This document shows, piece by piece, positions 1 through 31,664 of a stretch of 32,771 bases of DNA; the stretch's first letter is position 1; every line of letters starts with the position of its first letter. The notes beneath the pieces were generated by a model. It did no database searches. It saw only the letters and a list, made by a program, of their open reading frames with translations, and was not told the origin of the DNA. The stretch lies in IMG/VR virus record IMGVR_UViG_3300032167_000022. One strand, given 5' to 3'. A program made the position numbers and the translations under genes. This DNA comes from a virus.

Positions 1-8
1 ATTTGTTT

Positions 9-68
<60 letters not shown>

Positions 69-74
69 CTCTCT

Positions 75-281
75 TTATCTCGGACAATAACCGACCCACA
101 TGCCCCATCCGGTAATCGTAAATCTTTTATTGCTCATTCTCTTGATGTTTGCGTGAAGTGTCTCACTTGCTTCATCAAACATTTCAAAAGGCTTATACCC
201 GAGCGGTTCGTCTGTTTCAAAAGTTCTTGACATAATGTATTCGGTATCCTTATAGCGGAATGCAATCGTAACAGTTCTCAT
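75..281 (-). CDS. early hypothetical protein (68 aa), standard code, stop TAA
   Basis: Complete ORF with a conserved upstream UTR (agaaagagagataaaaaATG) behind promoter P1. Confidence 0.5.
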   Translation of the reverse strand: MRTVTIAFRYKDTEYIMSRTFETDEPLGYKPFEMFDEASETLHANIKRMSNKRFTITGWGMWVGYCPR

Positions 282-339
282 TTTTTATCTCTCTTTCTAC
301 GGTTTTTATTGAGGTTGTCCGTTCCTCTGTTCTGTATAT

Positions 340-368
340 ATTATACCACACTTTTGCGTATTTGTCAA
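340..368 (-). promoter_or_regulatory. early promoter P1: TTGACA, 17-nt spacer, TGgTATAAT (extended -10) on the minus strand
   Basis: tgtcaa at 363-368 and attata at 340-345 on the plus strand give TTGACA and TATAAT in reverse complement. The spacer is exactly 17 nt with TGg before the -10. There is an AT-rich UP-like region upstream. Confidence 0.7.
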
Positions 369-400
369 TACCTTTTTGAAAATTTATTTATGAATTTTTT

Positions 401-434
401 GTTAAGAAAAAAAGCTGTTTATAAAACAGCTTTT
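401..434 (-). terminator. rho-independent terminator (possibly bidirectional) for gene 631..419
   Basis: Stem aagctgtt/aacagctt with a 5-nt loop, followed by TTTTTTTCTT on the minus strand. The stop codon of the gene lies inside the hairpin. Confidence 0.55.
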
Positions 435-631
435 AATCTATAACAACAAATTCCATCTTCATTTTTTCTTTCAACTGCGTTATGCTTTTCCAAATGCCAC
501 AGGAAATCATTAACAATACCAACATCACTAAAGAATGTTGTACATCTTGCGATAAGATACATTTTTGACTTCCATTCATAAGACAATTCTTCTGCTACCT
601 TTGCCATAATTTCACTCATGCGATTTTCCAT
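419..631 (-). CDS. early hypothetical protein (70 aa), stop TAA
   Basis: ORF behind P2 with RBS agaaagaggtaaacaaaATG. Confidence 0.55.
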   Translation of the reverse strand: MENRMSEIMAKVAEELSYEWKSKMYLIARCTTFFSDVGIVNDFLWHLEKHNAVERKNEDGICCYRLKAVL

Positions 632-689
632 TTTGTTTACCTCTTTCTACCGTTCTTTTGGGCTTCCGGTTTTCCTCTTGTCTATATAT

Positions 690-718
690 ATTATACCATA
701 CTTTTACGCATTTGTCAA
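690..718 (-). promoter_or_regulatory. early promoter P2 (TTGACA-17-TGgTATAAT)
   Basis: tgtcaa at 713-718, attata at 690-695, spacer 17 nt. It is near-identical to P1. Confidence 0.7.
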
Positions 719-735
719 TAGGTTTTTGAAAATTT

Positions 736-775
736 CTTAAAAAAATTTTGAGAGGGTTTTCGGGAACCCTCTCGC
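736..775 (-). terminator. hairpin gagagggtt-ttcggg-aaccctctc downstream of gene 1102..785
   Basis: 9-bp stem with a 6-nt loop. The minus-strand tail is AAAATTTTTTT. The stem is related to the hairpin at 47-68. Confidence 0.4.
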
Positions 776-784
776 TTTAATTAA

Positions 785-1102
785 CTAAAATGTTGCTTCG
801 TTCTGTAAAATGTGCCTGCGCTTTTGTATATTCTTTTTGATTACGTTTGATAACCATTGCGGCGTATTGTTGTAAGTCACATAATTAGCCTGCTTATATT
901 CTGCTATGTACATTGTGATTATCATGCCTTCTTCGTCCTTGACTATCAGAACGCCTGTGTCTGTCAAGCAAGATACTGTCGGTGTGGTGGATGAATGGCG
1001 TTTAAATACGATGTTGCCATATCCAATAGTAGTGGCGATGTAAGCCACGCGGTCAAGGCGGTCTGCGCGCAGATGGTGGGAGATGTTTACTCTTTCAGTC
1101 AT
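785..1102 (-). CDS. early hypothetical protein (105 aa); the stop codon is TAG
   Basis: The ORF track extends to 1180, but its first 26 residues are translated promoter/UTR (CGIIYTE is tgtggtataatatatacag). The real start is the ATG at 1102, preceded by aaagaggtaaataaaATG. The stop at 785-787 is TAG, followed by ttaattaa. Confidence 0.55.
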   Translation of the reverse strand: MTERVNISHHLRADRLDRVAYIATTIGYGNIVFKRHSSTTPTVSCLTDTGVLIVKDEEGMIITMYIAEYKQANYVTYNNTPQWLSNVIKKNIQKRRHILQNEATF

Positions 1103-1151
1103 TTTATTTACCTCTTTCTTTTGGAAGGTGTGTTGTTTTCTTTCTGTATAT

Positions 1152-1180
1152 ATTATACCACATTTTTGTGTATTTGTCAA
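1152..1180 (-). promoter_or_regulatory. early promoter P3 (TTGACA-17-TGgTATAAT)
   Basis: tgtcaa at 1175-1180, attata at 1152-1157, spacer 17 nt. Confidence 0.7.
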
Positions 1181-1204
1181 TAGTTTTTTGAAAATTTATT
1201 TATG

Positions 1205-1244
1205 AACTTTTTGTAAACAAAAGGTACTGCTTTTCAGCAGTACC
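1205..1244 (-). terminator. rho-independent terminator for gene 1491..1234
   Basis: Stem ggtactgc/gcagtacc, then TTTTGTTTAC on the minus strand. The TGA stop of the gene sits in the loop. Confidence 0.6.
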
Positions 1245-1491
1245 CGCGTCTCATGATTTTCCTTTTTTCTGTTCCGATTATGCGGCAAGCTAACCGCACT
1301 GCGTGCCTGCGCTGGATTCTGATGCTTGCGCTTACCTCTTTGTCGTGCATCCAGTTGTCAAGGGCATCGCGCAATTCCATACGCTTATCTACCAATCTTC
1401 CCCAAATTTCATCATATCTTTCGTCGTAGGGGATGCGGTCAAGCGCATTGTTAATAAGGGTGATTCGGGTGATAGTGTTGATGATTTTCAT
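1234..1491 (-). CDS. early hypothetical protein (85 aa), stop TGA
   Basis: The real start is the ATG at 1491 (cat at 1489-1491 on the plus strand) after the conserved UTR with GAGG RBS. The upstream part of the track ORF is translated promoter. Confidence 0.55.
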   Translation of the reverse strand: MKIINTITRITLINNALDRIPYDERYDEIWGRLVDKRMELRDALDNWMHDKEVSASIRIQRRHAVRLACRIIGTEKRKIMRRGYC

Positions 1492-1551
1492 TGTTTTATC
1501 TCTCTTTCTTTTGGAGGGTGGCTCATTGACTCTCTCCCTCTCTCTGTATAT

Positions 1552-1580
1552 ATTATACCACATTTTAATAGATTTGTCAA
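1552..1580 (-). promoter_or_regulatory. early promoter P4 (TTGACA-17-TGgTATAAT)
   Basis: tgtcaa at 1575-1580, attata at 1552-1557, spacer 17 nt. Confidence 0.7.
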
Positions 1581-1671
1581 GGGGTTTTTTAAACTTTTTT
1601 CAAGAAATTTTCTTGGGGAAAAGCACCTGCGCATTTGGGAGTTTACTAACCCTTTCCCCCTTGACATATAT

Positions 1672-1700
1672 ATTATACCATACTTTGATTGAAAAGTCAA
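1672..1700 (-). promoter_or_regulatory. early promoter P5 (TTGACT-17-TGgTATAAT), in tandem about 120 bp upstream of P4 with no gene between
   Basis: agtcaa at 1695-1700, attata at 1672-1677, spacer 17 nt. Only about 80 nt of non-coding sequence separate it from P4. Confidence 0.6.
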
Positions 1701-1882
1701 TAGGTTTTTGAAAATTTATTTGTAAACAAAATATGAACTAATTTCGGGATACTGCTACCGAACAAATGTTTGTGCCTTACTTTAACAATTTATCACTTTA
1801 CCATACTAAAGCGCGAATTCGGGCCCCCACTACACCTGTCGTATGGAACGGATTGTTAAAACTTTAACAAGCGCATCCAGTA

Positions 1883-1913
1883 GACAAAAGAAAGATGGAG
1901 ATTACTCTCCATC
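1883..1913 (-). terminator. rho-independent terminator for gene 2060..1902
   Basis: Stem gatggaga/tctccatc with a 4-nt loop, followed by TTTCTTTTGTC on the minus strand. The TAA stop is in the loop. Confidence 0.6.
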
Positions 1914-2060
1914 TGTCAGATTCATTGCTATTACGAACATGTTCCAGTCTGCGTGCTGTGGTTCGCTCGTGTTGTTGTCTGCGATAATGTCAAGGTAGCT
2001 TACACCTGCCCAAATAGCAAGGGCGATTAAAATGGCGTTGATGGCTTTAAGAATTTTCAT
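1902..2060 (-). CDS. early small membrane/secreted peptide (52 aa: MKILKAINAILIALAIWAGVSYL...)
   Basis: ATG at 2060 after the conserved UTR. It has a hydrophobic N-terminal segment. The upstream part of the track ORF is translated promoter. Confidence 0.5.
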   Translation of the reverse strand: MKILKAINAILIALAIWAGVSYLDIIADNNTSEPQHADWNMFVIAMNLTDGE

Positions 2061-2118
2061 TGTCTTTGTATCCTTTCTTTGAGAGGGTTTGTTTTTTCTT
2101 TTCCCTTTCTCTATATAT

Positions 2119-2147
2119 ATTATATCATATTTTAATAGATTTGTCAA
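2119..2147 (-). promoter_or_regulatory. early promoter P6 (TTGACA-17-TGaTATAAT)
   Basis: tgtcaa at 2142-2147, attata at 2119-2124 with tca after it, spacer 17 nt. Confidence 0.7.
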
Positions 2148-2204
2148 TAGTTTTTCTTCAATTTAATTGTAAACGATTTATTAACATCGTTAAAACTTTA
2201 ACAA

Positions 2205-2245
2205 GCGCAGGCATTAGATAAGCAAGCATTTGTGATGCTTGCTTA
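2205..2245 (-). terminator. long imperfect hairpin (about 14 bp) downstream of gene 2473..2252
   Basis: tagataagcaagcat-ttgtg-atgcttgcttaatcta. There is no clear T tract on the minus strand. Confidence 0.35.
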
Positions 2246-2251
2246 ATCTAT

Positions 2252-2473
2252 TCACGCGAGACAAGCGTACAGAGTGAACTTCCTTTCTTCTACTTTGATG
2301 ATGCCTTCATCAGCCATCTCGCGCAGTACGTCAATCACGCGCAGACCATCGCCATTATAGCCCTTGATACCTGCTCTTGCCATAATGGTGTAGTAGGGAA
2401 GCCATTCAGCCATTACCGCATTTCTATTCTGAATCTTGTTTCTAATGTTCATCTTGCTTACGTTGATACCCAT
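2252..2473 (-). CDS. early hypothetical protein (73 aa), stop TGA
   Basis: ATG at 2473 (cat at 2471-2473) preceded by aagaaagaggtaacacaaATG. Confidence 0.55.
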   Translation of the reverse strand: MGINVSKMNIRNKIQNRNAVMAEWLPYYTIMARAGIKGYNGDGLRVIDVLREMADEGIIKVEERKFTLYACLA

Positions 2474-2546
2474 TTGTGTTACCTCTTTCTTTTGGTTGTT
2501 TTTGTTTTGTGCGCTCTCTGTCGCGCTCTTGTTTCTTTCTGTATAT

Positions 2547-2575
2547 ATTATACCACATTTTTGTGCATTTGTCAA
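2547..2575 (-). promoter_or_regulatory. early promoter P7 (TTGACA-17-TGgTATAAT)
   Basis: tgtcaa at 2570-2575, attata at 2547-2552, spacer 17 nt. Confidence 0.7.
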
Positions 2576-2660
2576 TAGGTTTTCGCAATATTTTTTTATT
2601 AACTTTTTATGAACATCGTTAAAACTTTAACAAACTCATACCACTGGACTACCAACAGCA

Positions 2661-2695
2661 GACAAAGAAAAGATGTGAGGTTTTACCCTCACATC
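2661..2695 (-). terminator. rho-independent terminator for gene 2859..2689
   Basis: Stem gatgtgagg/cctcacatc with a 6-nt loop, followed by TTTTCTTTGTC on the minus strand. The TGA stop is inside the hairpin. Confidence 0.6.
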
Positions 2696-2859
2696 CATCC
2701 AAGCTCTGCGCTTACTTCATTGAACTGCTCTTCATTGACATCGTACTCTACGTACTTTCTGCCATTCTCTTCGTAGAAGAAGAAGTTGCGCATCTCTACT
2801 CTGCCGCTTTCATAAATTTCATTAAACCACGCTTCACTCGTTGCTACTGTAATCATCAT
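2689..2859 (-). CDS. early hypothetical protein (56 aa, MMITVATSEAWFNEIYESGRVEMRNFFFYEENGRKYVEYDVNEEQFNEVSAELGWM)
   Basis: ATG ATG at 2859-2854 after the conserved UTR. The track ORF start at 2937 is translated promoter. Confidence 0.5.
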   Translation of the reverse strand: MMITVATSEAWFNEIYESGRVEMRNFFFYEENGRKYVEYDVNEEQFNEVSAELGWM

Positions 2860-2919
2860 TTTTTTAATCTCTCTTTCTGCCTTTCTTTTGGGCTTCAGGC
2901 TTTCCTCTGTTCTGTATAT

Positions 2920-2948
2920 ATTATACCACACTTTCATGGATTTGTCAA
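2920..2948 (-). promoter_or_regulatory. early promoter P8 (TTGACA-17-TGgTATAAT)
   Basis: tgtcaa at 2943-2948, attata at 2920-2925, spacer 17 nt. Confidence 0.7.
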
Positions 2949-3038
2949 GGGGTTTCGCAAAATTTTTTTATATTTTTTTTGTAAACAGATTATGAACATT
3001 GTTAAAAACTTAACTTACAAAGTTGGGAGAACTTTGCA

Positions 3039-3227
3039 CTTTAGTATGGTAAAGCGTTAATACATCGTTAAATCTTTAACAATCTCGCTGCCACCAAGCT
3101 CTACAAATGTATGTTAATTTTTTAACAATCTCGCTGCCGCAGCTCTACAAATGTATGTCAATCCAATTGCAGAGATTCGCTGAACTATGCAAATACTTTA
3201 ACGCTTTAGCACTTTACCATACTAAAG
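3039..3227. repeat. structured non-coding element: an inverted repeat (cactttagtatggtaaagcg at 3039-3058 and ctttaccatactaaagt at 3211-3227) flanking two tandem copies of about 40 bp (3076-3115 and 3121-3158)
   Basis: Direct reading shows an IR arm of 17-20 nt and near-identical direct repeats tttaacaatctcgctgcc..gctctacaaatgtatgt. A third copy of the arm (ctttaccatactaaag) sits at 1796-1811. Confidence 0.6.
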
Positions 3228-3269
3228 TATTCGCTACATTAGAGCGAGAGGGTTTGTACATAGTTTGTT

Positions 3270-3405
3270 AATAGTTTATTCACAATTAAATGTTAACAAA
3301 TTATTTACAATTTGTTCATAATTTGTTCACAATTATAGGAAATAAATTGTTAACAGTTTGTTCACAATTTGTTCATAAAAAATTTACAAATTGTTTACAA
3401 TTGCG
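3270..3405. repeat. iteron cluster: TTCACAATT three times, TGTTCATAA twice, TTTACAA(A)TT three times and TTGTTAACA twice; candidate replication origin or multi-site operator
   Basis: Short AT-rich direct repeats counted in a 135-bp non-coding stretch with no ORF. Confidence 0.5.
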
Positions 3406-3437
3406 AAAAACGGCTCGCTTCAGCCGCCAGCGAGCCG
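3401..3437 (-). terminator. rho-independent terminator ending the 4860-to-3648 minus-strand operon
   Basis: GC-rich 9-bp stem cggctcgct/agcgagccg with a 9-nt loop, followed by TTTTTCGCAA on the minus strand. Confidence 0.65.
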
Positions 3438-3576
3438 AGGAATGACAGGGTGCGATTATAGGGTTGCGCGTAGTCCTGGAAAAATCCGACAATAGGTTTT
3501 GTATAGTAGAGGGGGGTGGTTTTCGTGAAAAATTTTTTTTGAATTTGATAAAATGATTTGGTCTGGACAAAAATCC

Positions 3577-3650
3577 CCTAAAGTCATTTTTTAATTTCAA
3601 ATTACGAGAAACCCTAAAGTCATTTTGTAATTTCAAATCACGAAAAATCA
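3577..3650. repeat. two tandem 36-bp direct repeats (ccctaaagtcatttt.taatttcaaat.acga.aaa)
   Basis: Direct reading. These repeats are what generate the spurious 92-aa ORF 3373..3651 (LKLQNDFRVSRNLKLKNDFRGF). Confidence 0.6.
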
Positions 3651-3782
3651 ATCCTTCTTCTTCCTATTACGTTTAGGTTTTTCTCCCCAAATAGCCTCAT
3701 AAATTAAACTTGTACCTTTATTAGTAGCTTTCTGTCTTCTACTTTTTGCCATACTTCCCAAAATTCCACTCGGTTTTTTCAT
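3648..3782 (-). CDS. small, very basic protein (44 aa: MKKPSGILGSMAKSRRQKATNKGTSLIYEAIWGEKPKRNRKKKD), translationally coupled
   Basis: Its ATG overlaps the TAA of the upstream gene (TAAAATG), and GGAGG lies 8 nt upstream. The ORF track does not list it because it is under 60 aa. Confidence 0.35.
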   Translation of the reverse strand: MKKPSGILGSMAKSRRQKATNKGTSLIYEAIWGEKPKRNRKKKD

Positions 3783-3783
3783 T

Positions 3784-4218
3784 TTAATTCCTCCATCCAC
3801 AACATCCTTCCGTACCGCAAGCGTCGCATTGCGCTTCTACTTCACTTTTACAAGGTCTCCAATCTTCCACAGATTTCTTTGCGCTTTCTTCTTTCATATA
3901 TTTATCCCTATACTCAACAAATTCATCCCAGCCGCATTCATTAAAAATTTTAGTTGCTATAAATAATTCCCGCATACTATTATAAAAATGATATTCCTCC
4001 GGAGGAGGTTTAATTTCATTAGTCCTTACAAGTTTCCATCCTTTTACTTTCTTTCCAAATAATTCAGTTTCTGTTTCAACACCTTTAAACTCTTTATAAC
4101 TATAAGGATTTTTAATTCCATTAGCTTGCGCGTACTCATTAAATTCCATTTCATAAATAAGTATTGCCGCACTCACACCACTTATAACAATAGGTTCGTT
4201 AAAATCTGTCATCATCAT
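3784..4218 (-). CDS. early hypothetical protein (144 aa) with a C-terminal Cys cluster (CKSEVEAQCDACGTEGCCGW)
   Basis: Complete ORF with a TAA stop, in an operon behind P9. Confidence 0.55.
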   Translation of the reverse strand: MMMTDFNEPIVISGVSAAILIYEMEFNEYAQANGIKNPYSYKEFKGVETETELFGKKVKGWKLVRTNEIKPPPEEYHFYNSMRELFIATKIFNECGWDEFVEYRDKYMKEESAKKSVEDWRPCKSEVEAQCDACGTEGCCGWRN

Positions 4219-4249
4219 CCCATCCTTCCGGCATAAAAATATCTAAAAT

Positions 4250-4342
4250 CTATACTAACAAATTATTAAAAACTAAAATGGGGCCGCCCAGTATAAAGAC
4301 CGCATAAATAGCCCATTTAGCTCCTTCATTTTCAATCTTCAT
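4250..4342 (-). CDS. possible small hydrophobic peptide (30 aa, MKIENEGAKWAIYAVFILGGPILVFNNLLV) in a 187-nt intergenic gap; stop is TAG
   Basis: ATG at 4342 with a weak RBS. Support is only the ORF and the unusually long gap. Confidence 0.2.
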   Translation of the reverse strand: MKIENEGAKWAIYAVFILGGPILVFNNLLV

Positions 4343-4404
4343 AATTTCATCTAAATAATTACTAAACATTAAAAATGAGCAAATCATCCATCCAATAATA
4401 ATAA

Positions 4405-4797
4405 TTAAAGCTCCCACACGAATGTACCATCCTTTAATTTATAAACATTAGCATGTAAGTTAATAGCTTCTCCACCTTCAAAATCATATTCTTTTAAATT
4501 CTTTTCTTCCAAAACTTCTTTTAATACTAAACTATCTTTTGGTAAACATAATGTAACTCCAATAACATTATGGTCATCATACATAGAAGTATCAACTATA
4601 TTATATTGCGCTTTTTCATTAATAACATTTACTGAAGTTACTAAAGTAACATCATTATATTCTTCAACAATTAATTTTTTCATTCTATCTCTTAATGAGC
4701 GTGAGCTATCTTTTCTTTCAATAACAGCAATAATAATTGTTACAATTATCATACCCGCAGTTACAATTCCCAATAATAATAAAGCATCTAAAAACAT
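4405..4797 (-). CDS. early membrane-anchored protein (130 aa; N-terminal TM helix LLLLGIVTAGMIIVTIIIAVI)
   Basis: ORF with RBS ttgaggtgcgcaaATG behind P9. Stop is TAA. Confidence 0.55.
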   Translation of the reverse strand: MFLDALLLLGIVTAGMIIVTIIIAVIERKDSSRSLRDRMKKLIVEEYNDVTLVTSVNVINEKAQYNIVDTSMYDDHNVIGVTLCLPKDSLVLKEVLEEKNLKEYDFEGGEAINLHANVYKLKDGTFVWEL

Positions 4798-4831
4798 TTG
4801 CGCACCTCAATTTTTTTTATTTTCTATATAT

Positions 4832-4860
4832 ATTATATAAAAAATTTTTAAAAAAGTCAA
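4832..4860 (-). promoter_or_regulatory. early promoter P9 (TTGACT-17-TATAAT) for the 4797-to-3648 operon
   Basis: agtcaa at 4855-4860, attata at 4832-4837, spacer 17 nt. Confidence 0.6.
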
Positions 4861-4878
4861 TAAATGCCTTAATGAAAT

Positions 4879-4907
4879 TTGACAAAAGAAAAATTTTATG
4901 GTACAAT
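4879..4907 (+). promoter_or_regulatory. plus-strand promoter (TTGACA-17-TGgTACAAT), divergent from P9 and heading the structural/packaging module
   Basis: TTGACA at 4879-4884, TACAAT at 4902-4907 preceded by tgg, spacer 17 nt. GGAGG and an ATG lie 29 nt downstream. Confidence 0.6.
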
Positions 4908-4935
4908 ATAAGTATAAAATAACTGGAGGTAAAAA

Positions 4936-5994
4936 ATGGTTAAATTAGATTATTCTTTACAAACTCCAGAAGAAAGAGTTAAATTAGTAGAATAGATTTT
5001 AGCCGAGGACCCAAACCCCAGTGAAAAATATTCAGAAGTATTGGCTGACTATTTAATTCTTTGTATGGAGAAACAAGAAAGAAAAGAAAAGAAAATTCTT
5101 ACTGAAAACCGAATGGCGACAGTAAATAAAAGAGAAACTTCTTATGAAGGTCTTGTTTCCCAATTAGAAAATGGCGAAGATGGTATATATAATTTAATGT
5201 CAGATAATAAATAGTAGATTTTTCAACCAAAAGTAACAATAACAAAAAAAGATTTAGAAGAGATTCCTGATTTGCGCCAATTGCGCGACGCCATAGAAAT
5301 CTGGGAGGCAAAACTAAAAACCGCCGAAGGAAAAGATGCTTTTACTATTAAAAAAGCTTTAATTGAATTGCGGAAAGACCAATATATTATTAAAAATGCG
5401 TTCAGATGCCCTGTTGAATTAAATAAGATTACTCGCTCAAAATCTTATATTAAATTAGATGATACAACTTGCGAATTTGATGATGATGGATATCCTATTC
5501 CTTCTGGAATTTCATTAATGAATCCTGAAGTTGTTTCAGCAATTTTATGTAATTATTCAAAATTAAAGCAAGATAGTTGGGATTATTTTGAAGGAGATAC
5601 TTGGTATCTTATGAATGATTTTGACCATTTGAGTAATGTGGCTTTAAAAGAATATCCATTATATGAACGATTAGTTGATTTAAAAATTGATGGACTTTAG
5701 AATGCGGATATCCAAATAAAATTAGAAGAAGAATTTGGAATTAAACATAGTCTAGAATATATATCTAGTTTATGGCGTAATAAAATTCCTAAATTAATTG
5801 CGTCAACTGCGGAAGATGAATTTTTAGATTGGTATTATTTAGAAGTTGAAAAAGGAAAATATAAAAAATGTAGTAGATGCGGACAGATTAAATTAGCTCA
5901 TAATAAATATTTTAGCAAGAATAAAACAAGCCGAGATGGCTTTTACAGTATTTGTAAATGCTGCCGGAATGCTAAAACAAAGAAAGGAGAATAA
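4936..5994 (+). CDS. first gene of the plus-strand module, about 352 aa, 4 in-frame TAG; C-terminal zinc-binding motif CSRCGQIKLAHNKYFSKNKTSRDGFYSICKCC (zinc ribbon or HNH-like?)
   Basis: RBS GGAGG, ATG at 4936. Frame 1 is continuous to the TAA at 5992-5994 if TAG is read as sense; it includes a TAG TAG doublet. The ORF track fragment 5272..5700 is in the same frame. Confidence 0.5.
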
Positions 5995-5997
5995 TTT

Positions 5998-7191
5998 ATG
6001 CCTGACCATTATTATTGTGAAAAATGTAATAGAACATTAGCAGCTGAAGAATTTTATACTTCAAATAATTTAGAAAAATATCCTAATGATGGTAAGTTAA
6101 ATCAATGTAAAAAATGTATTACAATGCATGTAGATAATTGGAATCCAGACACTTATCTATGGATTTTACAAGAAGTTGATGTCCCATATGTTCCAGAAGA
6201 ATGGGATAAACTTATGACATCATATATTAAAGACAATAAAAAAATTACAGGTATGACTATTTTAGGTAGATATCTATCTAAAATGAAATTAAAACAATTT
6301 AGAGAATATCGTTGGAAAGACAACGAATTTATACAAAATTTAAAAAATAAAAAAATTGAAGAAACAATGAAACGTTAGGGATATAGTGCGGTTGAAATAG
6401 CAGAAGCTATTAATAAATCAACCTTTACTATGCCTGTGGAAGAATTGCGCGAACCAGAACCTAAAGCAATTGGCTCTCAAGTGGAAGAAGAACCTGAAGA
6501 TTATTTTGCTAAATAGTCTGGTGCTGATGACTCTTTCTTTGATGATGATTTAACAGAAGAAGATAGAACATATTTAAGATTAAAATGGGGAAAAGCATAT
6601 AAACCAGAAGAATGGATTAAACTAGAACAACTTTATAATGAAATGATGGAATCTTATGATATCCAAACCGCAGGTCATATTGATACTTTAAAATTAATTT
6701 GTAAAACCTCATTAAAAGCAAATCAATTAATTGATATTGGTGATGTAGAAGGATTCCAAAAAATGAGTAAAGTTTATGATAACTTAATGAAGAGTGGTAG
6801 ATTTACTGCGGCCTAGAATAAAGCAGAATCTGGTGAGTTTGTTGACTCTATTGCTGAACTAGTTGAAATATGTGAAAAAGAAGGTTTTATTCCTAGATTT
6901 TATACAGATACACCAATGGATAAAGTTGATGAAACTTTAGCTGATTTAAAAGGATATACACGCACATTAGTCACTGAAGAAATGAATTTAGGTAATTTAA
7001 TTGAAAGTGCTGTTAAAGAAATGGCTAAGCAAGAAGCAAAAGAAGAAGATGAAGATGTTGAAGATGAACTTGATTTAGATGAAATTGAATAGTTAAAAGA
7101 TGAAGATTTTGAAGATTATAATCAATTTTTAGATGAAGATATAGAAGCTGACGCGGATTTCTTAAAGCAATTAACTAATGAGGGTAATTAA
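5998..7191 (+). CDS. about 397-aa protein with an N-terminal Cys4 zinc ribbon (CEKC...CKKC) and an acidic C-terminus, immediately upstream of terminase; candidate small terminase subunit or DNA-binding protein
   Basis: RBS aaaggagaataatttATG. Frame 1 is continuous through 4 TAG to the TAA at 7189-7191. The assignment rests on position and the zinc ribbon only. Confidence 0.45.
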
Positions 7192-8948: not shown

Positions 8949-9305
8949 TTGCGGGCATCTCGTGGTGAAATCAAAATAGAAGAAATTTTGACAGAAGCAG
9001 AATTACATTTTAAAATGGAATATATTTTTCCAGATTTAAAAAGTCCAAATGGTCGTCCTTTGAGATTTGATTTTGTTGTTTTTGATGATGATGGAAATAT
9101 TGATTTTATTATTGAATATTAGGGAAAATAGCATTATGAAGCTAGTCAAAAATTTGGTGGTAAAAAAGGTCTTTATCAACAACAATATAATGATAATCAA
9201 AAAAGAAGATTTTGTGCTTTACATGATTTTAAATTAATTGAAATCCCTTATACAGATGAACATCTTATTACTTATGATTATTTAATGCATTTAGCAGGAT
9301 ATTAA
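8949..9305 (+). CDS. DUF559/Vsr-like small endonuclease-fold protein (about 118 aa; RFDFVVFDDDGNIDFIIEY*GK*HY)
   Basis: Frame 0 ORF after RBS aagggggga. I propose a TTG start at 8949; the alternative is the in-frame ATG at about 9012. The motif resembles the DUF559 consensus (lvIEvDG.qH). Confidence 0.45.
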
Positions 9306-15248: not shown

Positions 15249-15917
15249 ATGGCAACACTTTTTGGAAGTGTTTATAATCGCTTTCTTGGAAAAATTACTG
15301 ATGATTTGTATATGGAATTAACCCCAGAAGATACAATTAAGGATTTGTAGAATTTCTTAATTGACGCAATTCCTGGTTTTGAATTTCCACGCATTAATTT
15401 ATTTGATTATAAAATTAATTTACAAATTGTTGATGCTGATTAGCTCGTAGATGATGATTTTATTTTAGGAGCTATTTGGGGAGATATTTCAAATACTGAT
15501 AAATCATAGATTCCTAGTTTTGATGAATTTGCTTCATTACCAGCTAATTTATAGTTTCATGTAACTTGGGGCGAAATACCAGATACATCAAAACCAGATG
15601 TTCCAAAAGTTCTTGTTGATAGGTCTTATTTTACAGCTGAATTAAGTTCTGAAGAAATCAATATTTTAGCAATATTGATGAAACAGGCTTGGGTTTAGCG
15701 TCAAGTTACTTCAATTGAGCATACTCGTATGAAATATAGTGGGTCAGATTTTAAAATGACTTCACAAGCAAACCATTTACAAAAATTATTAAATTTATTG
15801 GAAGAATCTCGTAGAGATTCTCTCCATATGTAGCGTTTATATAAACGAAGAAAAAATGTAAATGGAATTTATCAATCTAATTGGTCTATATTGAGGGATA
15901 CGAGTGCTATTAACTAA
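15249..15917 (+). CDS. head-tail joining region protein (222 aa, 6 TAG)
   Basis: RBS taggaggcgaagagATG. Frame 0 is continuous to a TAA. Confidence 0.45.
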
Positions 15918-21743: not shown

Positions 21744-24700
21744 ATGGCTCAATAGAGATTTGATTTTACATTAGGTATAAAAGCTGATACAAGTCAAGCC
21801 GAATAGAAAATGAATGAGTTGGCTAATTCTTTGAAAAAAATTGCGTCAAATCCTCCATCTTTATTAGATGATTAGGATTTAAAAGATGCTACGAAATCAG
21901 CGCAAGAATTAGAAAAACATTTGTCTAAAGCTGTAAATGTAAATACTGGTAAATTAGATTTATCAAAATTTTCAAAAAGTTTATCCTCTGCTGGATAGGA
22001 TTTAACATATTTTTAGAAAAATTTATCTAAACTTGGCGTAGAAGGTGAGTAGGCATTTTTAAAACTTGCTGAAAATATTGCTATGGCTGAAGTGCCAACA
22101 GTGCGTTTAAATAATCATTTAAAGAATTTTTTAGATGAATTAATTAAAGTCGGACGTTGGCAATTGAGTTCTAATATTATGCACGGACTGTAGGGAGCCA
22201 TTTAGACTGCTTATGGTTATGCGCAAGATTTAAATGAATCATTAACAAACATTAGAATTGTTACTGGTTAGACTACAGATGAAATGGCTAAATTTGCGTT
22301 AAGAGCAAATGATGCGGCAAAAGCTTTAAGTACAACTACTACTAACTATACAGATGCGGCATTAATCTTCTATCAGCAAGGTCTTGCGGAAGATTAGGTT
22401 GAAGAGCGCACAAACACAACAATTAAAATGGCTAATGCTACTGGTGAAAATGTTACAAAGATATCTGACCAATTAACTGCGGTTTGGAATAACTTTGATA
22501 ATGGTACCAAGCCATTGGAATATTATGCTGATGTTATGACTGCGTTAGGTGCGGCAACTGCTTCTAGTACTGATGAAATCGCTGAAGGTATTGAAAAGTT
22601 TGCTTCAATTTCTGAAATGATTGGTTTAAGTTATGAGTATGCGGCTTCCGCGCTTACGACCGTAACAGATGTCACTCGTCAAAGTGCCGATGTAGTAGGT
22701 ACTGCATTTAAAACGATTTTCGCACGTATTTAGGGTTTAAAACTTGGTGATACATTAGAAGATGGTACATCTTTAAATAAATACTCATAGGCTCTTGCTT
22801 CTGTTGGTATTTCTATTTTTGATTAGAATCAACAATTAAAAGATATGGATGATATCCTTGATGAGATGGGCGCTAAATGGTCATTACTTAGTAGAGACTA
22901 GCAAGCTGCGCTCGCGCAAACTGTTGCTGGCGTAAGACAGTACAATCAGCTTGTATCTCTTATGAATAACTGGGATTTCTTTAAATAGAATGTAAATGTA
23001 GCAAAAGGTTCTGAAGGAACTTTAACTGAACAATCAGCTATTTATGAAGAAAGCTGGGAAGCATCTTTAAAGAGAGTTAGAGCTTCTGCTGAAGGTATTT
23101 ATGATAGTTTAATTGATGAAGAATTTTTTATTAAGATTAATGATATTTTTGCTAAATTATTAGAAGGAATTAATGGAGCAATAGATGGTATTGGCGGATT
23201 TGAAGGAATTTTAAAAACTTTAGGTAGTGTATTTATGTCTTATTTTGCTTCTAAAATGCCGAAAGCATTATCAGGCATAAGCAATACTTTTAGTATTATT
23301 ACTGGAAAAGCTTTAAGAGATACTTAGAAAATACAATAGGAAAGTATTAATAGTTTATCTAAAATGCGTCCTGATGCTACTAATGCTGAAAAAATTTAGC
23401 AAGAAGGATTGAAAAAAGTTGCTATTTTAAAGCGTGAATTAACTAATATTTCTAATAAATTAACTGAAGAAGAAAAAGAAGAAAATTAGAATAGAATATA
23501 GCAAACCGCAGATATTTATGCTAATGCTGCTGCCATTGAAAAAGAAGCGGCAGAATTAAGAAAACTTAATGAAGAAAAAATTAAAAGTTCTTCTAATCAA
23601 ATTACAAACGAAGCTTTCGGATTTAGAGAAACTATTGCTGAAGATCAAAATCAAATAAATACATTAAGTTAGATATAGAATAGAACAAAATTAGATGATT
23701 CAAGATTAGATAAAGCTACTTCACGAGTTAATGAATTAACTGAGCAATTTTTTAAATTAAAAGATGCTATGGATGAAGTTATAGAATCTAAACAAATAGC
23801 TTTTGATAAAAAAGATTGGGAAGAATTTTCTAATATGGGAGAATTATTAGATTTTGATAGTAGAGAATCTAAAGAGTATTTCCAATATGTTGGAGAAGGA
23901 ATTGATTAGTTAAAAGCAAAATATATTGATTTTAGAAAACAAGAGTAGTAGTATGAATATTTAAAAAATAAAATAGATATTAATAAAGCAGCTTGGACTG
24001 CTCCTGATTTTAATTTATCTTTGGATGAAGCAAAAAATTCTATTTCACAATATTTAAGACAAATAGATGAATTAAAAAAATAGGGATTTGTTTAGTTAGA
24101 TATAGATACAACAGAGTTGTAGTCAAAATTGAAATCAACTGATGTAACTGTTGAGGATTTACAAAAATCATTTATTTCTTTTTTAAATAATTTATCAAAT
24201 AAAGCTTCAAAAACTTCTACAAGTTTTTCAAAAGATGGCGATAAGATTCATAGTGCATTATTAAAAATTTTAACTCCTTTAATGGGTGATAAAAGTCAAG
24301 CTGAAAAAGCAATTGAAGGTCTGCGCACAAAATTAGCAGAATTAACAGAAGAAGAAATGGATTCTGTTTTACGCACAACTGGAATGTTATCGGAAAGAGT
24401 AGATGAACTTCCAAAACATGCTTATAAAGCCTCAGAAGCTATAATGGAACTTGGAAGTGCTTTAATGTCTTTAAATTCTTTTATGAATTCTGTTAGTAGT
24501 ACTACTCAAATACTTGAAGATAATACTGCTTCTATGGCTGATAAAATAGGAGCTGTTGTTGGAGCAGCTTCTACTGGAATTTTTACTTTTAATTAGACTA
24601 AATAGGCAATGATTGCTGTTGTTGGAGCTGTAAGTAAATTTGCGGGAGCGGCAACTACAGCCGCCAAAAGTGGAGCTGCTTTATCGGGAATTTTAAGTAA

Positions 24701-27700
24701 AGGTTTAGCTGCTATTGGTGGCCCTACAACTTTAATTATTGCAGGTATTACTGCAGCAATAATGGGGTTAGTTGGCTTTTTAGGTACTAAATCAGCTGAA
24801 GCTGAAAAAGAATTAGAAGAAATTGAAAGAAAAACAGAAGAGCTTAATAATAAAATTTCAGAACAGTATACAGAAATTGAAACTAATAATGAATTAATTG
24901 AGTCTTATGAAAAATTATTAAATACTTATAAACTTACAGGTGAAGGAAAAGATTAGCTAGATATAAAAGCTAAAGAATTAGCTGAGGCTTTTAGAATTGA
25001 AGGATCGGCTTTAGCAACTTTAACTGGTTAGTATGCTGATTATGAAAATTTATTAAATAAAGCTAAAAATAAATCTTATAATAATGTTAATGAACAAATT
25101 AATTTAGTCCAAAATAAAAGAAATAGTAGTATAAAAGAATTTAATGATATTATTCAAGCTAAAAAGCATACTGATGATGTTGGGCATATAATGAGTAATC
25201 TTTCTTAGATTTCTTTATTTTCACTTAATGATGTTAATCGTAATTATGGCACTAAAAATGAATCTTCAAACGGAGATATGGCTGCTTTTAGAATTATTGA
25301 TGATTATTTAACAAAAAATAATTTAGGAGAAATTGGTAATAAAAATAGAAAAAATGGTACTATAATGACAGCTGAATTATTAGTTTCAGATATGGAAGAA
25401 GCTGTTAAGTTATTTGAATAGTTAGAAAATGAATTATTACCACAAGTAAAAGCTGTTAGTAACGGTCAAGAGACTAAAGAATTTGAAGAAAAAATTAAAA
25501 GTGCTAGAGAAGTTTTGTCAAAATATGTGGCATCAGATTAGGAATTAAAAGGTTTAGAATTAGCTTATAGTTTTAAAGATAAAGATTTTGAATCATTTGA
25601 AGAATATAATAATTTAATAATTGAAACAGAAAATCGTTTAAAGAGCTGGGGATTTAGTACAAGTGAAATTGAATCTACAATTAATACTGCAATAAATTTA
25701 ATTCCAGATTTAAAAATAAAACAATATGAAGAGTTAAGAGAAGTTGTAGAAACTTTATTATCTAATGGAGCTGGTAAAGGCATTACTGAAGGATTTTTAG
25801 GGCAATTATTTAGTGATGCTGAAAAAGGTGTTGGAATTTATGATAAATTAACTCTCGCTTCTTTAAATTGGTCAGTTTTAACAATTGATAATTGGGAGAA
25901 AGCTGCTAGTGCAGTTTAGAATTATACAAATGCAATTAAAGATGCCACTAATGCTCAAGAATTAAGGGATAGTGCTAAAAATGCTTTATCTTTATTAGAA
26001 GATGGTTTAACTGAAAAAGAAGGCGAAGAGTTAAAAGGACTTATAGATTGGGGTAATGAAGAAAAAGGTATAGTTGAATATACTGAATTCTTAAAAATGA
26101 ACCTTGAAGAGCAAAAGTCCTATTTGGAAGATTTTGCTAATATTAATTTATTTGAAAGATGGACCGATGAAATTCAAACTTCTAAAGATTTAATTGAATA
26201 GCAAAAATTACAGTTAGAAGATACAAAAAAAATATTAAAAAATGATTTATTATCTGTTTTAGATAGTGATGGTAGTTATCAGCAAGGTAATTACAGAAAA
26301 GTTTATGAATTATATGATTTAGATAAATGGTTTGAAAGTGAACAAGCTTTTGTTGATGCAATTTCTAACCCTAAAATGTTAGATAAATTGCTTAATAATC
26401 AAGATTTTCTTATTACTATTGGCATTGATGAAGCTGAACTTATTCAAAATGCTGAAAATACTATTAATTCTGCTGAAGAATCTTTAGAATTAGAATTAAA
26501 TACTACTCCATCTGAACATTCTATAAAATATTTATTAGATGAAATTGAATCTCTTGAAACAGAATTAACAGTTAAAGCAAATACTTTAGAAGCAGATGAA
26601 ATCCTTGATGAATTATTAGATAGACAATATCAATTAGATGTCCATGTTAATGCCGTTTTAGGTCAAGAACTTGATAAAAATTTAGAAAAGATAAAAAGTT
26701 TTAGTGATACTTTATCTCTAATTGGGGAAAATTATTAGGTTAGTGCAGATAATCTTCATGCTTTAGAAGCAGTAATTCCTGGAATTACTCAAAAATTAAC
26801 TGTAAGTCAAGAAGGATTAATTTAGCTTCATAAAACTGAGGCAATTGCGGCAATTGAAAATACTAAAGCAAATACAATTAGTTCAAAAACAAAAATTTAG
26901 AATCGTATTGATGAATTAAATGTAACAAAAACAGCTGCTGAAGCTGCTTAGAAAGCAATTCAAGCTGAAATAGATAAAAACTTAAAAGATGAAGAGACTC
27001 GTACTAATGCTGTTAATAAAATGGCTGAAATTAGAGCCAATTATCAAAAAGCAACTAATGAAGGTGTAGCAGCAGATTATGCTAAAACATCAGCAGAAAT
27101 GTCAGAAGATAGTGATGACAATATGGAAAATGATGTTGAAAATGCTAGTATTTCCACAGCTGCTTATGTAGAAAAATTCATTGCTTTACATGCTAATACT
27201 GAAAACTATAAACAAGAATATTTAAAATTTGTTGAAACTATGCTTTTAGCTGATTAGGCTGCTTTAGCTGGAGATCCTGTAGCTTTAAGTGCTTTATTAG
27301 GTAATGTATAGGCTGTAAAAGATTTAGGTGGTACTGCAGAATAGATTGCTTAGGCAGAATTAGTAGCTAATGAAATGAAATTAACGGCTTCTGAAAAAGG
27401 GCAAGTTATCTAGTATAATGCTGCTATTGTTTAGAATAAAATCAATGATGAAGGCAAATTTGATTTTTCTGGTACGAGAAATGATGAAACTGGAAAAACA
27501 ATAAAAGAATCTGAAGAAACGAAGAGAAAAACAGAAGATTATTTAAATAATTTAGCAAAAGAATATGCAAAATTAAATGAAGATACTGCTAACGAATTTT
27601 TACAAAATCACTATGATTATTATGGTTCAATTATAACTTCTAGTGATGAAGCAATTGCTAAATTAAATATTGATTTAGCTGAAGAAACGGCAGCTCTTAA

Positions 27701-30700
27701 TTCTTTAGATTAGATGATAGTAAATATAAAAAATGGAAAAAGTGCTACCGGAACCTCTTCACAATCTTCTGAAACTTTACAAGAAACAGTTAAAGAACAT
27801 AACCCTTATCAAAATGTTGATAATACTATTGAAGCTATTAATCTAAAATTAGAAGAATAGAAAGCTATAACTGAAAATTTAGAAAAAGGCACTGAAGAAC
27901 ATTTAGCATCTTTAGAAAATGAGCGCTTATTAACAGCAGAAATTGGTAAATATCAACAAGAGAAACTTAATATTGCTGAAAATGAATTAGCTACTTTAGA
28001 ATAGAAATTATCTCAATTTGGAGCAGAATATGACCCATTAACTAGAAAAATTGTTAATTATGATGAAATAGTTAATGCTAAAGCAAGAGAAGTTGATAAA
28101 TTAAATAAAGAACTTGCGGCCGCTTCTGGTCCTGAAAAAGAAAGATTATAGGAGCAAGTAAATGCTGCTGAAAAGCTTTATAATAATGTTAAAGAGTTAG
28201 CTGATGAACATAGCAATACTGTTGATATTATTAATGATACTACTACTGCTTTAAGAGAAAATGGTTAGGCTATTGAAGATAATATAAAAACACAGGAAGA
28301 GTTTAATAAAGAATTACAAAAAGCAAGAAAAGAAGTAGAAAAAACAAATAAAGAAATTCAAGAAACCATTGATAATCTTAAAGATGAAGTAGATATTTAC
28401 CATCAATTAAATCATGAATTAGATAAGTAGAATGAAGAATTAGATAGATTAAGTAAATTAAAAGATTCTTTATATGGTGAAAATCATATAAAAGCAGCTA
28501 AATAGGAATTAGAAGTTGTAAAACAAACATAGAAAACATATGAAGATTTACTTGATACTACATTAGATGACCTTGAAAATGCTATGGGTAAAGCTACTGT
28601 ACATTTTGATACTAAAATTGTATATGATGAAGATGGAGCAATTTTAAATTATCAAGAGTTACAGGAAGAATTAGTTCGTAAAGCTGAAACAGCTGCTAAT
28701 GATTTAACAGCTGCTAACATTCATTCTTTAACACTGCCTGAAGAATAGCGCGAGGAATATTTAAAACCATATCAAGATGCTTATGATAATGCTTTAGCTG
28801 CTTAGAAAGATGGATAGGATGCTATTAATAAAGTTCATGATTTAAGAGATTAGGCTTATAATTATGGACAGCAAGCAAGAGATAGTTTCTATAAAGGTTT
28901 AGACCTTTAGGCTGAATTATGGGATTATAAATTTAATCTTTAGATTGAAATCAATGATAATGATTTGGAAGAATTAGAAAAGCAATTAGAAAAGATTGAA
29001 GATAAAGGCTATGAAATGTCTGAAGCAATAGCTTTAATTAATACAGATTTTAGAAGTCTTTATGAAAATAATTATACATATTTACAAAGTGAAATTGATA
29101 ATTTATAGAGTATGTATAGTGCTGGAGAAATTACAGAAGAAGCATATATAGAAAGATTAAAGAAAATCCAAGAAGAAGCCAAAGAAGCAGCGAATGAACT
29201 TGAAGAACTTGATGAAAAAGTATATGAATATTATGGCATTACATTAGAGAAAGCTAATGAAGAATTAGAATTCTATATCAAGTAGATGGAACATGCAACT
29301 GAGGTATTAGACCACTATAAAAATATTATTGAATTGGTTAATGGTGAATACGATTATGAGCGTTTAGGTATCGTTCTTGAGGGTTAGGCACATAATCTAT
29401 AGAATGAAATGGAAGTTGCTGTTAAATGGTTTGAGACCTTAGATGCGGAAAAAGCTGCAATTGAAGCTGAGTTAGCTAATCCTGGCATATCTGATGAATA
29501 GCGTGAAAAATTAAAAGAAGCTTATGAACCTATTTATGAAGCTTGGATGGAAGCACATGATGAAATGTTATCTAAAACTACTGAATGGGTTGAAGCAACT
29601 AAAGCAGTTATGGAAAATACTATGGCAAAAGCTGCTAGAGATTTAGAGATGTCTTTCACAGATGGCGTAGGTTTTGATGCCTTAAACGATTCTATGGATA
29701 GATTAAATGAATATTCTGATATTTATTTAACTAAAACTAATCAAATTTATGAAGTTCAGAAAATGATGCGTACTGCTCAACAAGCCGCAGATAAAACCGA
29801 CAATGCTTCATCTAAACAGAGATTGAAAGCATTTATGGACGAACTGGGAGATTTACAAGAGAAAAATAAATTAAGTAATCTTGAATTAGAAATTGCGCAA
29901 AAGAAATATGATTTACTTGAAGCACAAATTGCTCTTGAAGAAGCTCAAAATGCTAAATCTACAGTTAGATTACAAAGAGATTCTGAAGGTAATTTTGGTT
30001 ATGTATATACTGCTAATTAGGAACAAGTTGCTGAAGCTGAAACGCAAGTATATGAAGCAGAGCAAGAGTTATATAATTTAGCATTAGAATCTGCCAATGA
30101 TTACGCATAGAAGCGTATTGAATTGCAGCAATCATTATATGACGATTTAGTTGAGTTAGAAGAAAATCGTGTTGCTGGTATGTATGCAACTGAAGAAGAA
30201 TATAATAAAGCTCGTGAATAGCTGATTAAAGAATATAATGATTTATTTATTGCTTATGAGGATTAGTATAATTTAGCAATTGAAGCTGATGGTTATTTAA
30301 GAGTTTAGATTGCTGAAAGACATAATAAACAACAATTATCTGATACTGTTGGATTTTTAGATGAATCCACATAGAATATTCTTGAAACAACTACATTACA
30401 GCAAGAAACATGGATTACTCATTTTGATAATATTTTAGAAAAAACTCGTGGATGGCGTAATGATACCAATAGTGAATATGATTAGTCTGCTATTGATGCT
30501 TCTGAATGGTTAACAGCAACGCAAGGATATTTGAAAACTTGTGAAGATTCTTATAAAACTTGGTAGACTACAGTTACTGAACAAAATAAATATGTTTAGG
30601 AAGCTTTAGTTCATACTCAGGGAGAAACTGATAAATTAACTACTGAAAGTGATGAATTAAAAACAGCTTTAATTGGTGAAGATGGAAATGGTGGTCTTGT

Positions 30701-31664
30701 AAAAGCTCTTGGAGATGAATTATAGAAAGTTAGAGAGTTAATTACAGAATATGCTTTACAAAGTAATGGATTAGATATTTTAGCTGAAAAATATGAATCT
30801 TTAAGAGGTCAAATTGATAGTTTAATTTCATCAATTAATAGTATTCCTGATTGCGCTGAATGGTGTGTAAAAACATATGGAGATGGCGGAATGGGAGGAG
30901 GAGATACTGGAGGTAATTTCCCAGTTGATCCTGACCCAGTTTTTTCATCTGATGATGATGATAGTAAATTTGGTTGTGGTGCTCATACTGCTACAACAGC
31001 AGATGATATTAAAGATACATCAATAACATCAAATACTAATAAAAATTATGCTGTAGAATCTGCTAAATATTGGAAAGGTCAACAAAGTATTGGAGAAGCT
31101 GCTGCTAATTTAGGAATTTCTGTTAGTGAAATGAATAAAATAAATATGGCTTTAGCGGGTTAGACTGAAAATTGGAATGGTACTAAAATTTTCACTGAAG
31201 AATTTGCTGATTAGAATTTATCTGATGATTATGAAAGAACTCAAAAAAGTGGATTTGATGAAATTATTAATAATCAACAATCTGCTGCTAATGTAAATAA
31301 ATGGCTTATAGATGAAGGTATAGCAACTGGTGCCACAGGCATGTATACTGGGGCTTGGGGTCCAGAAGGTAGATTAGCGTTATTGCATGAAAAAGAATTA
31401 GTATTAAATAAAGAAGATACTAAAAATTTCTTACATGCAACCGATATTTTAAGAAGTATATCTGATGTAATAGATTTACAAGCTATGTCAAATCAATTTA
31501 ATACTTTATCTGCTAGTATCTATTCTGGTTCTTCTGGAATATTAGAACAATCAGTTCATATAGAAGCTAATTTCCCGAATGTATCTGATAGGAATGAAAT
31601 TGAAGAAGCGTTTAATAATCTTATTAATACAGCTTCTCAATATGCGAATCGTAAAACTATATAA
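21744..31664 (+). CDS. tail tape measure protein, about 3306 aa, with on the order of 100 in-frame TAG and no in-frame TAA or TGA in the parts I translated
   Basis: RBS aaaggagtaattatatattATG. Frame 0 links nine track ORF fragments (22428, 24129, 24609, 26376, 27021, 29547, 30891, 31341). It carries the TP901-type tape measure core motif (GISIFD*NQQLKDMDDILDEMGAKWSLLSRD*QAALAQTVAGVRQYNQLVSLMNNW), a Gly/Ala-rich membrane segment (MIAVVGAVSKFAGAATTAAKSGAALSGILSKGLAAIGGPTTLIIAGITAAIMGLVGFLG), and long coiled-coil stretches. It ends at a TAA followed by a terminator. Confidence 0.85.

Follow-up and report, generated by a model that had tools for sequence, protein, structure and literature searches.

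Rex-type operator boxes in the early region of an uncultured, AT-rich phage are probable binding sites for the Rex repressor of its host

The DNA analysed here (the window, 32,771 nucleotides (nt); IMG/VR record IMGVR_UViG_3300032167_000022) belongs to an uncultured, AT-rich phage and carries in its early region six copies of an 18-bp palindrome that resembles the operator of Rex, the dimeric winged-helix repressor of Gram-positive bacteria. A comparison of the region with GenBank phages by megablast gave no nucleotide match. The window is an internal segment of JGI contig Ga0318466_10001305 (3300031555; 176 kb), and a contig of the same phage was present in ENA (L082) and extends 5.6 kb past the left end of the window. 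Positions 1-3000 hold a minus-strand row of short cassettes, each with its own promoter, A/T-rich UP-like tract, small gene and terminator, and on the plus strand from 4936 on there are terminase, portal, capsid, tail and tape-measure genes, the structural genes being SPbeta-like (Yon/Yom Pfam families). The cassette promoters are of a near-perfect sigma-A type (TTGACA, 17 nt, TG-n-TATAAT); eight of them matched at 11-12 of 12 hexamer positions, with -35 hexamers starting at 368, 718, 1180, 1580, 1700, 2147, 2575 and 2948.

The first cassette of the row is driven by promoter P8 (2920-2948, minus strand; 12/12, TG-extended), contains a gene for a 56-amino-acid (aa) protein (2689-2859) and ends in an intrinsic terminator (2671-2696, minus strand). 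It is followed by P7 (2547-2575, minus strand; 12/12, TG-extended) with a gene for a 73-aa protein (2252-2473), and by P6 (2119-2147, minus strand; TTGACA, 17 nt, TATAAT, 12/12, with TG extension and A/T-rich UP-like tract), whose cassette encodes a 52-aa membrane-like protein (1902-2060) and ends in an intrinsic terminator at 1893-1914 (minus strand). The upstream regions of P6, P7 and P8 are paralogous over ~49 nt. P5 (1672-1700, minus strand; 11/12) stands in tandem with a promoter at 1552-1580; in this consensus pair (1552-1700, minus strand) the -35 hexamers at 1700 and 1580 are 120 bp apart with no open reading frame (ORF) between them, and the upstream member may give rise to a short leader or a small RNA.

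The 14-mer GTTAAANNTTTAAC occurs exactly at 1855-1868, 2189-2202, 2618-2631 and 3067-3080, that is, four times in the window against 0.02 copies expected (dinucleotide-preserving shuffles), which bears out the recurring palindrome reported in an initial annotation of this DNA. Two of the positions given there (1855-1868 and 2189-2202) were exact; the copies placed at 2619-2632 and 3068-3081 were found one base to the left, at the positions named above, and the one placed at 3003-3015 is the variant GTTAAAAACTTAAC at 3001-3014. A sixth copy (GTTAATTTTTTAAC, 3113-3126) had been missed. The element had been described as a 6-bp inverted repeat with a 2-bp spacer; the palindrome is there and proved to be longer, with 18 bp in a 7+4+7 arrangement (TTGTTAA-N4-TTAACAA). 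The context catcgttaaaactttaacaa, formerly ascribed to every copy, was exact only at 2185-2204 and 2614-2633, had one mismatch at 3063-3082 and read gattg or cattg at the copies starting at 1855 and 3001.

The six full-length boxes, to which no strand is assigned, were compared with the published Rex operator consensus of Clostridia, TTGTTAANNNNTTAACAA, over its 14 specified positions. Box 1 (1853-1870, TTGTTAAAACTTTAACAA) matched at 14 of 14 positions, box 2 (2187-2204) and box 3 (2616-2633), both TCGTTAAAACTTTAACAA, at 13, box 5 (3065-3082, TCGTTAAATCTTTAACAA) and box 6 (3111-3128, ATGTTAATTTTTTAACAA) likewise at 13, and box 4 (2999-3016, TTGTTAAAAACTTAACTT), the right arm of which is degenerate, at 12. 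When the whole 32.7 kb was scanned, all five matches with at most one mismatch fell between 1853 and 3128, and at most two mismatches gave 11 matches in the window against 1.34 expected. All six boxes are intergenic. Their four-base centres are AACT (three boxes), ATCT, AAAC and TTTT, most of them with one C. Boxes 5 and 6 lie in the first and second unit of a 46-bp tandem duplication and are therefore not independent copies; between copies, 18-22 bp of box are identical although the adjoining sequence is unrelated. The palindrome is non-random, restricted to the early region and of operator type, suited to a dimeric winged-helix or helix-turn-helix protein, the class of site first proposed for it. 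An exact 19-mer search of IMG/VR returned a single chance match, inside an unrelated gene. A reading of the box as an RNA hairpin was weak, with folding energies of only -1.7 to -4.8 kcal/mol.

Motif edge and -35 hexamer are 41, 42 and 52 bp apart at the promoters with -35 at 2147, 2575 and 2948, close to the 45-55 bp previously stated for three copies. Measured from predicted start sites, on which all box-to-start distances given here rest, box centres lie at ~-84 (box 2, P6), ~-85 (box 3, P7), ~-95 (box 4, P8), ~-161 and ~-207 (boxes 5 and 6, P8) and ~-197 (box 1, from the promoter at 1700, whose -35 lies ~150 bp from the box); the copies at 1855, 3067 and 3113 are 150-210 bp away from any promoter. 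Each box is placed farther upstream than the UP elements, clear of every core promoter. Read in the direction of the early genes, box 1 follows ~20 bp past the terminator at 1893-1914, box 3 is located between the terminator at 2671-2696 and P7, and box 2 is preceded by a hairpin without a T-tract. One weak secondary promoter match in which the proximal half-site of a box serves as -35 was found, at 2193-2166.

The consensus TTGTTAANNNNTTAACAA has been published in papers on Caproicibacterium, C. pasteurianum and C. aceticum, and for C. thermocellum Rex it was confirmed by DNA affinity purification sequencing (DAP-seq) and electrophoretic mobility shift assay (EMSA). The overall Rex consensus is TTGTGAANNNNTTCACAA, and the form in S. 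aureus is TTGTGAAW4TTCACAA. Rex occupies DNA when the NADH/NAD+ ratio is low, and NADH releases it; a role as activator has been proposed in the literature and not shown. All six window boxes are 18-bp inverted repeats of the TTGTTAANNNNTTAACAA or TTGTGAANNNNTTCACAA type and lie in intergenic regulatory DNA upstream of transcription units, and with box 1 identity with the Rex consensus is complete at the level of sequence. They share with the Rex operators of Gram-positive bacteria the 18-bp palindrome, the half-site, the tolerated T/G variation and the intergenic location. They differ from known Rex operators in that they belong to a phage genome and precede genes of unknown function and not fermentation or NADH-recycling genes. 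The S. aureus Rex sites (ldh1, pflB, adhE) lie within the promoter or a few bp away, whereas the phage boxes are found 65-207 bp upstream of start sites.

For a census of the phage family, 73 related IMG/VR loci were anchored on the large terminase (TerL) and reduced to 28 non-redundant lineages; boxes with at most one mismatch were counted, a T/G alternative at half-site position 5 was allowed, and the expectation was taken from dinucleotide shuffles. In the early regions (206.5 kb) 36 boxes were counted against 0.65 expected, and in the late regions (358.8 kb) two against 1.3. The box is common in this phage group and not universal, with at least one copy in 14 of the 28 lineages; the exact 14-mer GTTAAANNTTTAAC is rare among the relatives. 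Only eight of the 36 early boxes were located in ORFs, though ORFs cover 78% of the early DNA (p ~1e-12). The motif was not frequent at random positions and was tied to early intergenic DNA across the family; neither of the conditions named in the initial annotation as refuting its operator (equal frequency at random positions, no positional relationship to promoters genome-wide) came out against it. Promoter-proximal boxes of the relatives are centred at -65.5 to -122.5, and many other boxes lie hundreds of bp from promoters. One lineage (L025, L035, L051) has five perfect boxes within ~190 bp and three or four more, and the ENA contig of the window phage has three additional boxes in a 1-kb noncoding stretch, one of them a perfect TTGTGAAAAATTTCACAA.

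Half-sites among the relatives read TTGTTAA, TTGTGAA or a mixture of both. The two published Rex consensus strings part at this same variable position, one at which Rex boxes differ among lineages of Firmicutes, and the pattern of site variation is Rex-like. The centre is mostly A/T across 35 family sites. A close variant of the window phage (L075) offers a small test of selection. Box 3 differs there by three substitutions, of which two fall on spacer (N4) positions and the third on the T/G-variable base. Box 2 is the same in both, next to exchanged flanking bases at 2205 and 2211, and bases directly beside box 3 are exchanged as well. Neither box has changed at the twelve other constrained positions.

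All cultured phages related by TerL infect Firmicutes. Enterococcus phage H1, which infects E. faecium (49% TerL identity), was scanned over its whole genome of 138,084 bp. It contains five TTGTGAA-N4-TTCACAA boxes, the published form of S. aureus Rex sites and of the overall consensus, all within two noncoding stretches of the early region; boxes are 350-1100 bp away from the early promoter. One other, weak match was located in a structural gene, and 0.97 matches were expected for the whole genome. These five boxes recur in phage EF5, which infects E. faecalis. Enrichment in the early region and absence elsewhere, as would be expected of host-regulator sites, were common to the window, the 28-lineage census and the whole H1 genome. 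Enterococcus has Rex, and rex mutants of E. faecalis have been described; no Rex homologue was found in the complete H1 genome. Judged by sequence, the boxes of H1 and EF5 are the strongest single result that argues for host Rex as the binder.

In addition, the early control regions of H1 contain five perfect or near-perfect matches to TGWAANCGNTNWCA, three of them TGTAAGCGCTTACA, against 0.2 expected in the genome; we take TGWAANCGNTNWCA to be the consensus of the cre sites (catabolite-responsive elements) of CcpA. These matches are located at 9007, 9383, 10851, 12316 and 18384 of H1 (L095), interleaved with the Rex boxes, and EF5 (L100) has four of this type (7151, 7526, 8564 and 8704). No cre-pattern match was found in the window lineage. 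From their motif content, enterococcal early control regions appear to collect host metabolic-regulator sites.

The initial annotation had left open whether a phage or a host regulator acts at the palindrome and had named small early proteins as candidates. The proteins adjacent to the boxes (52, 73 and 56 aa) had no Pfam or PHROG match and no homologues in other box-bearing lineages, and a Pfam and PHROG scan of ten early and middle proteins gave only one match, sigma-factor-like, for the protein at 4936-5994; this weakens the candidacy of a small early protein. A phage-encoded Rex was found neither by tblastn in ~1.3 Mb of related loci nor in a scan of close relatives in IMG/VR. Since the boxes are not accompanied by a constant early gene in their neighbourhood, binding by a host factor is the most economical assumption. 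Among host factors Rex is favoured because the site equals the Rex consensus, because Rex would already be in the cell when the phage DNA enters and because the variable base of the boxes is the one at which the published consensus strings differ. Taken together, the sequence evidence makes it probable that the boxes are Rex-binding sites, and we regard the six boxes of the window as Rex-type operators for which the host's own Rex is the likeliest binder; any particular regulatory outcome is held with lower confidence than the binding.

Several observations weigh against this assignment. The palindrome had been placed upstream of the early promoters; this holds for the three promoters with a proximal copy and is no general promoter feature, since five of the eight strong promoters (368, 718, 1180, 1580 and 1700) have none. 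No box lies within or beside a core promoter; the window centres (~-84, -85, -95, -161, -197 and -207) and those of the relatives (-65 or further upstream) are all more distant. The central four bases of window boxes contain C (AACT, ATCT) and are not pure W4. Boxes 5 and 6 and several boxes of L025 are tandem duplicates, which leaves fewer independent sites than the raw counts suggest. Half of the related lineages are without a box, and none was found in C. botulinum phage D-1873 (41.6 kb around TerL) or in the first 15 kb of Geobacillus phage E3. The flank shows a one-sided preference (G at -1 in 25 of 35 boxes) that a symmetric dimer does not explain and that may reflect shared descent of the copies. 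Crp/Fnr-type regulators such as ArcR recognise a similar core. An assignment of hosts from genome and metagenome-assembled genome contigs was rejected, the labels being contradictory (Agathobacter to Treponema, Bacteroidales) and pointing to binning noise.

If host Rex occupies the boxes that precede P6, P7 and P8 and those in the noncoding control regions on either side of the cassette row, the activity of the early region would be coupled to the redox and energy state of the cell. By the usual logic of Rex, early output would be kept low while cells are oxidised or starved and set free once they are reduced and ferment actively. We infer here the binding of Rex, the sign of its effect and its action from -84 or further upstream. 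Since no box covers a core promoter, simple occlusion cannot be the mechanism; the coordinate shut-off or activation of the early cassettes that had been suggested initially is, with sites upstream of the UP elements and not over the promoters, likewise kept as a conditional proposal. Rex might interfere with upstream contacts of the C-terminal domain of the RNA polymerase alpha subunit (alpha-CTD), boxes might cooperate or form loops, bound Rex might act as a roadblock to read-through from the upstream cassette (a candidate because an intrinsic terminator precedes boxes 1 and 3, and a hairpin that lacks a T-tract precedes box 2), weak secondary promoters that use the proximal half-site as -35 might be repressed, or Rex might be titrated. 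None of these candidates is preferred.

The last of them can be taken as a reading in its own right, in which Rex is bound and the boxes serve to soak up the host protein, so that NADH-recycling and fermentation genes would be derepressed to the benefit of the phage. About half of the boxes are indeed far from promoters in long noncoding regions (1853, 3065 and 3111 in the window; L082; L025; H1), core-promoter overlap was seen in none, and the enterococcal phages cluster cre sites too. A sponge would not need the window of -65 to -122 in which promoter-proximal boxes recur in several lineages, however, and only 6-11 sites per genome would be available for it; we consider titration as the main purpose unlikely. 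At the scale of large SPbeta-like siphophages of gut and rumen Firmicutes, it can tentatively be imagined, and is rather improbable as a general rule, that clustered host metabolic-regulator sites, namely Rex boxes in the window phage and these together with CcpA cre sites in its enterococcal relatives, form a metabolic checkpoint or a transcription-factor sponge. As a checkpoint they would let the phage read the NADH/NAD+ ratio, along with carbon status, before lytic commitment; as a sponge, replicating genomes would titrate Rex and reprogramme the fermentation of the host.

Next in order is a phage-encoded dimeric regulator unrelated to Rex that would use the boxes as its operators, e.g. for early shut-off, the identity with the consensus then being coincidence or mimicry. 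It was the default of the earlier reading, and there is room for it: the control regions are full of other lineage-specific repeats (the 11-bp units of TTGTNNACAA and a 16-bp element, both described below), some units include a Rex-like half-site, and only ~38 kb of a ~176-kb genome are covered. The operators of CI and Cro in temperate phages are likewise short repeated palindromes in a control region and are bound by dimers, but they overlap promoters beside their own repressor gene, whereas the window boxes overlap no promoter and have no cognate gene nearby; an adjacent, co-inherited DNA-binding gene was not found among the early genes next to the boxes, nor was any DNA-binding family among the scanned proteins. 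Repeat arrays near the boxes differ between lineages and the box stays constant, change is confined to the Rex-variable base, and the Enterococcus phages have TTGTGAA, the published form in Bacilli, S. aureus among them. A chance match at 14 of 14 positions to the site of a ubiquitous host regulator is improbable, and we doubt that a phage regulator accounts for the boxes.

The positions of the boxes bear on another host protein, a Crp/Fnr-family regulator (ArcR-like, core TGTGA-N6-TCACA) that would act on the early promoters as an upstream activator of class I type. Class I positions for CRP are near -61.5, -71.5, -82.5 and -92.5, on one helix face. Box centres at ~-65.5, -84.5, -94.5 and -105.5, counted from predicted start sites, roughly fit this series, but those at -111.5, -122.5, -161, -197 and -207 are off it. 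The ArcR motif was likened to the Rex target in the S. aureus Rex paper; against this, most boxes of the window lineage read TGTTA-N6-TAACA and do not conform to the ArcR-like core, the G/C form being present only in some relatives, and the conserved outer T and A (TTGT...ACAA) match the Rex string exactly. The promoters, at 12/12 with TG extension and UP-like tracts, seem to have no need of an activator, and this explanation is quite improbable. That cassette duplication left the copies behind as passive, functionless remnants, as the ~49 nt of paralogy upstream of P6, P7 and P8 and the tandem duplication of boxes 5 and 6 would allow, is very hard to reconcile with an 18-22 bp box kept identical amid unrelated adjoining sequence, with substitutions in L075 that strike the flanks and spare the constrained positions, and with the same palindrome in distant relatives with entirely different flanking genes. 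Readings as pac site or replication origin were set aside (the boxes are in two regions several kb apart, and window and enterococcal boxes differ at the Rex-variable base).

Operators for host Rex would have parallels in other phages. The Bacillus phages phi29 and Nf have 0A boxes, sites of the host regulator Spo0A, in their early control regions (PMC2731898), and the window boxes resemble them as putative host global-regulator sites embedded in early control DNA. Whether phi29 and Nf go through with the lytic programme depends on the state of the host, there the onset of sporulation. Regulator and signal differ, with Spo0A~P in phi29 and Nf and, by prediction, the NADH/NAD+ ratio sensed through Rex in the window phage; moreover, the phi29 boxes overlap or abut early promoters and replication origins and were tested experimentally, whereas those of the window, as predicted sites, lie upstream. 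LexA boxes are found in temperate phages, and cyanophages have NtcA and PhoB boxes. The principle is shared, in that a phage promoter reads host physiology via a host transcription factor, with other factors and other signals. Both host-regulator sites in the early regions of phages and Rex operators were known before; no report of Rex boxes in phage genomes was found in the searchable literature. Binding of Rex to the boxes would tie the earliest phage transcription directly to the redox state of an anaerobic host, with bearing on the timing of infection by gut and rumen phages, their persistence in starved cells and the manipulation of fermentation.

Further repeats were observed in the same noncoding DNA. 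A 16-bp element, CTTTACCATACTAAAG, is perfectly conserved at 1796-1811 (plus), 3039-3054 (minus) and 3212-3227 (plus), and at 15587 and 15709 of L082; three copies in the window compare with 0.04 expected, and L082 has five. It always lies within ~50 bp of a Rex-type box, and TAAAGTG-like repeats follow in three copies. Its D-arm-like appearance suggested a tRNA, a reading that was rejected when ARAGORN detected none in either the window or L082. Arrays of 11-bp periodic units (TTGTTCACAA, TTGTTTACAA or TTGTTAACAA) extend over 3237-3411 of the window and 15090-15545 of L082, where TTGTNNACAA occurs 18 times against 0.72 expected; two 11-bp units stand between the box (or the terminator) and the UP tract at most early promoters. 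The unit is specific to the window lineage, relatives having others such as TTGCACAAA, and the arrays may be sites for phage proteins or origin iterons. Rfam gave no match in window 1-6000. The noncoding stretch at ~3500-3650, for which there was neither an Rfam match nor a conserved RNA fold, shows 72-80% identity in many relatives, with blocks that include CCAG and TTTTTTCMCGAAA, after which comes a C-run; its place in several relatives is directly before the late operon's plus-strand promoter.

Divergent promoters stand back to back at 4832-4907 (-35 at 4860, minus, and 4879, plus) and part the recoded late operon from a minus-strand operon (3648-4797) that is missing altogether from several relatives. 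The late genes (4936-32771, plus) read through only if TAG is translated: the tape-measure ORF (21744-31664, 3306 codons) has 78 in-frame TAGs and the terminase gene nine, and the confirmed minus-strand genes between 1234 and 4797 have none. TAG recoding appears to be confined to the late genes of the window phage. The first gene of the plus-strand operon (4936-5994; 352 aa, four in-frame TAGs, Cys-rich C-terminal tail) matches PHROG 5767 'sigma factor' with E = 9e-49, and its product may be a phage sigma-like factor for the late genes.

At its left end, the window opens with a run of ~30 T (positions 1-50). The JGI source contig ends 67 bp beyond, and a related IMG/VR contig (L034) ends at the same tract. 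The ENA contig of the same phage passes through a shorter, interrupted A/T tract there and continues into further early cassettes, and the start of the window has the look of a homopolymer assembly break and not of the end of a genome.

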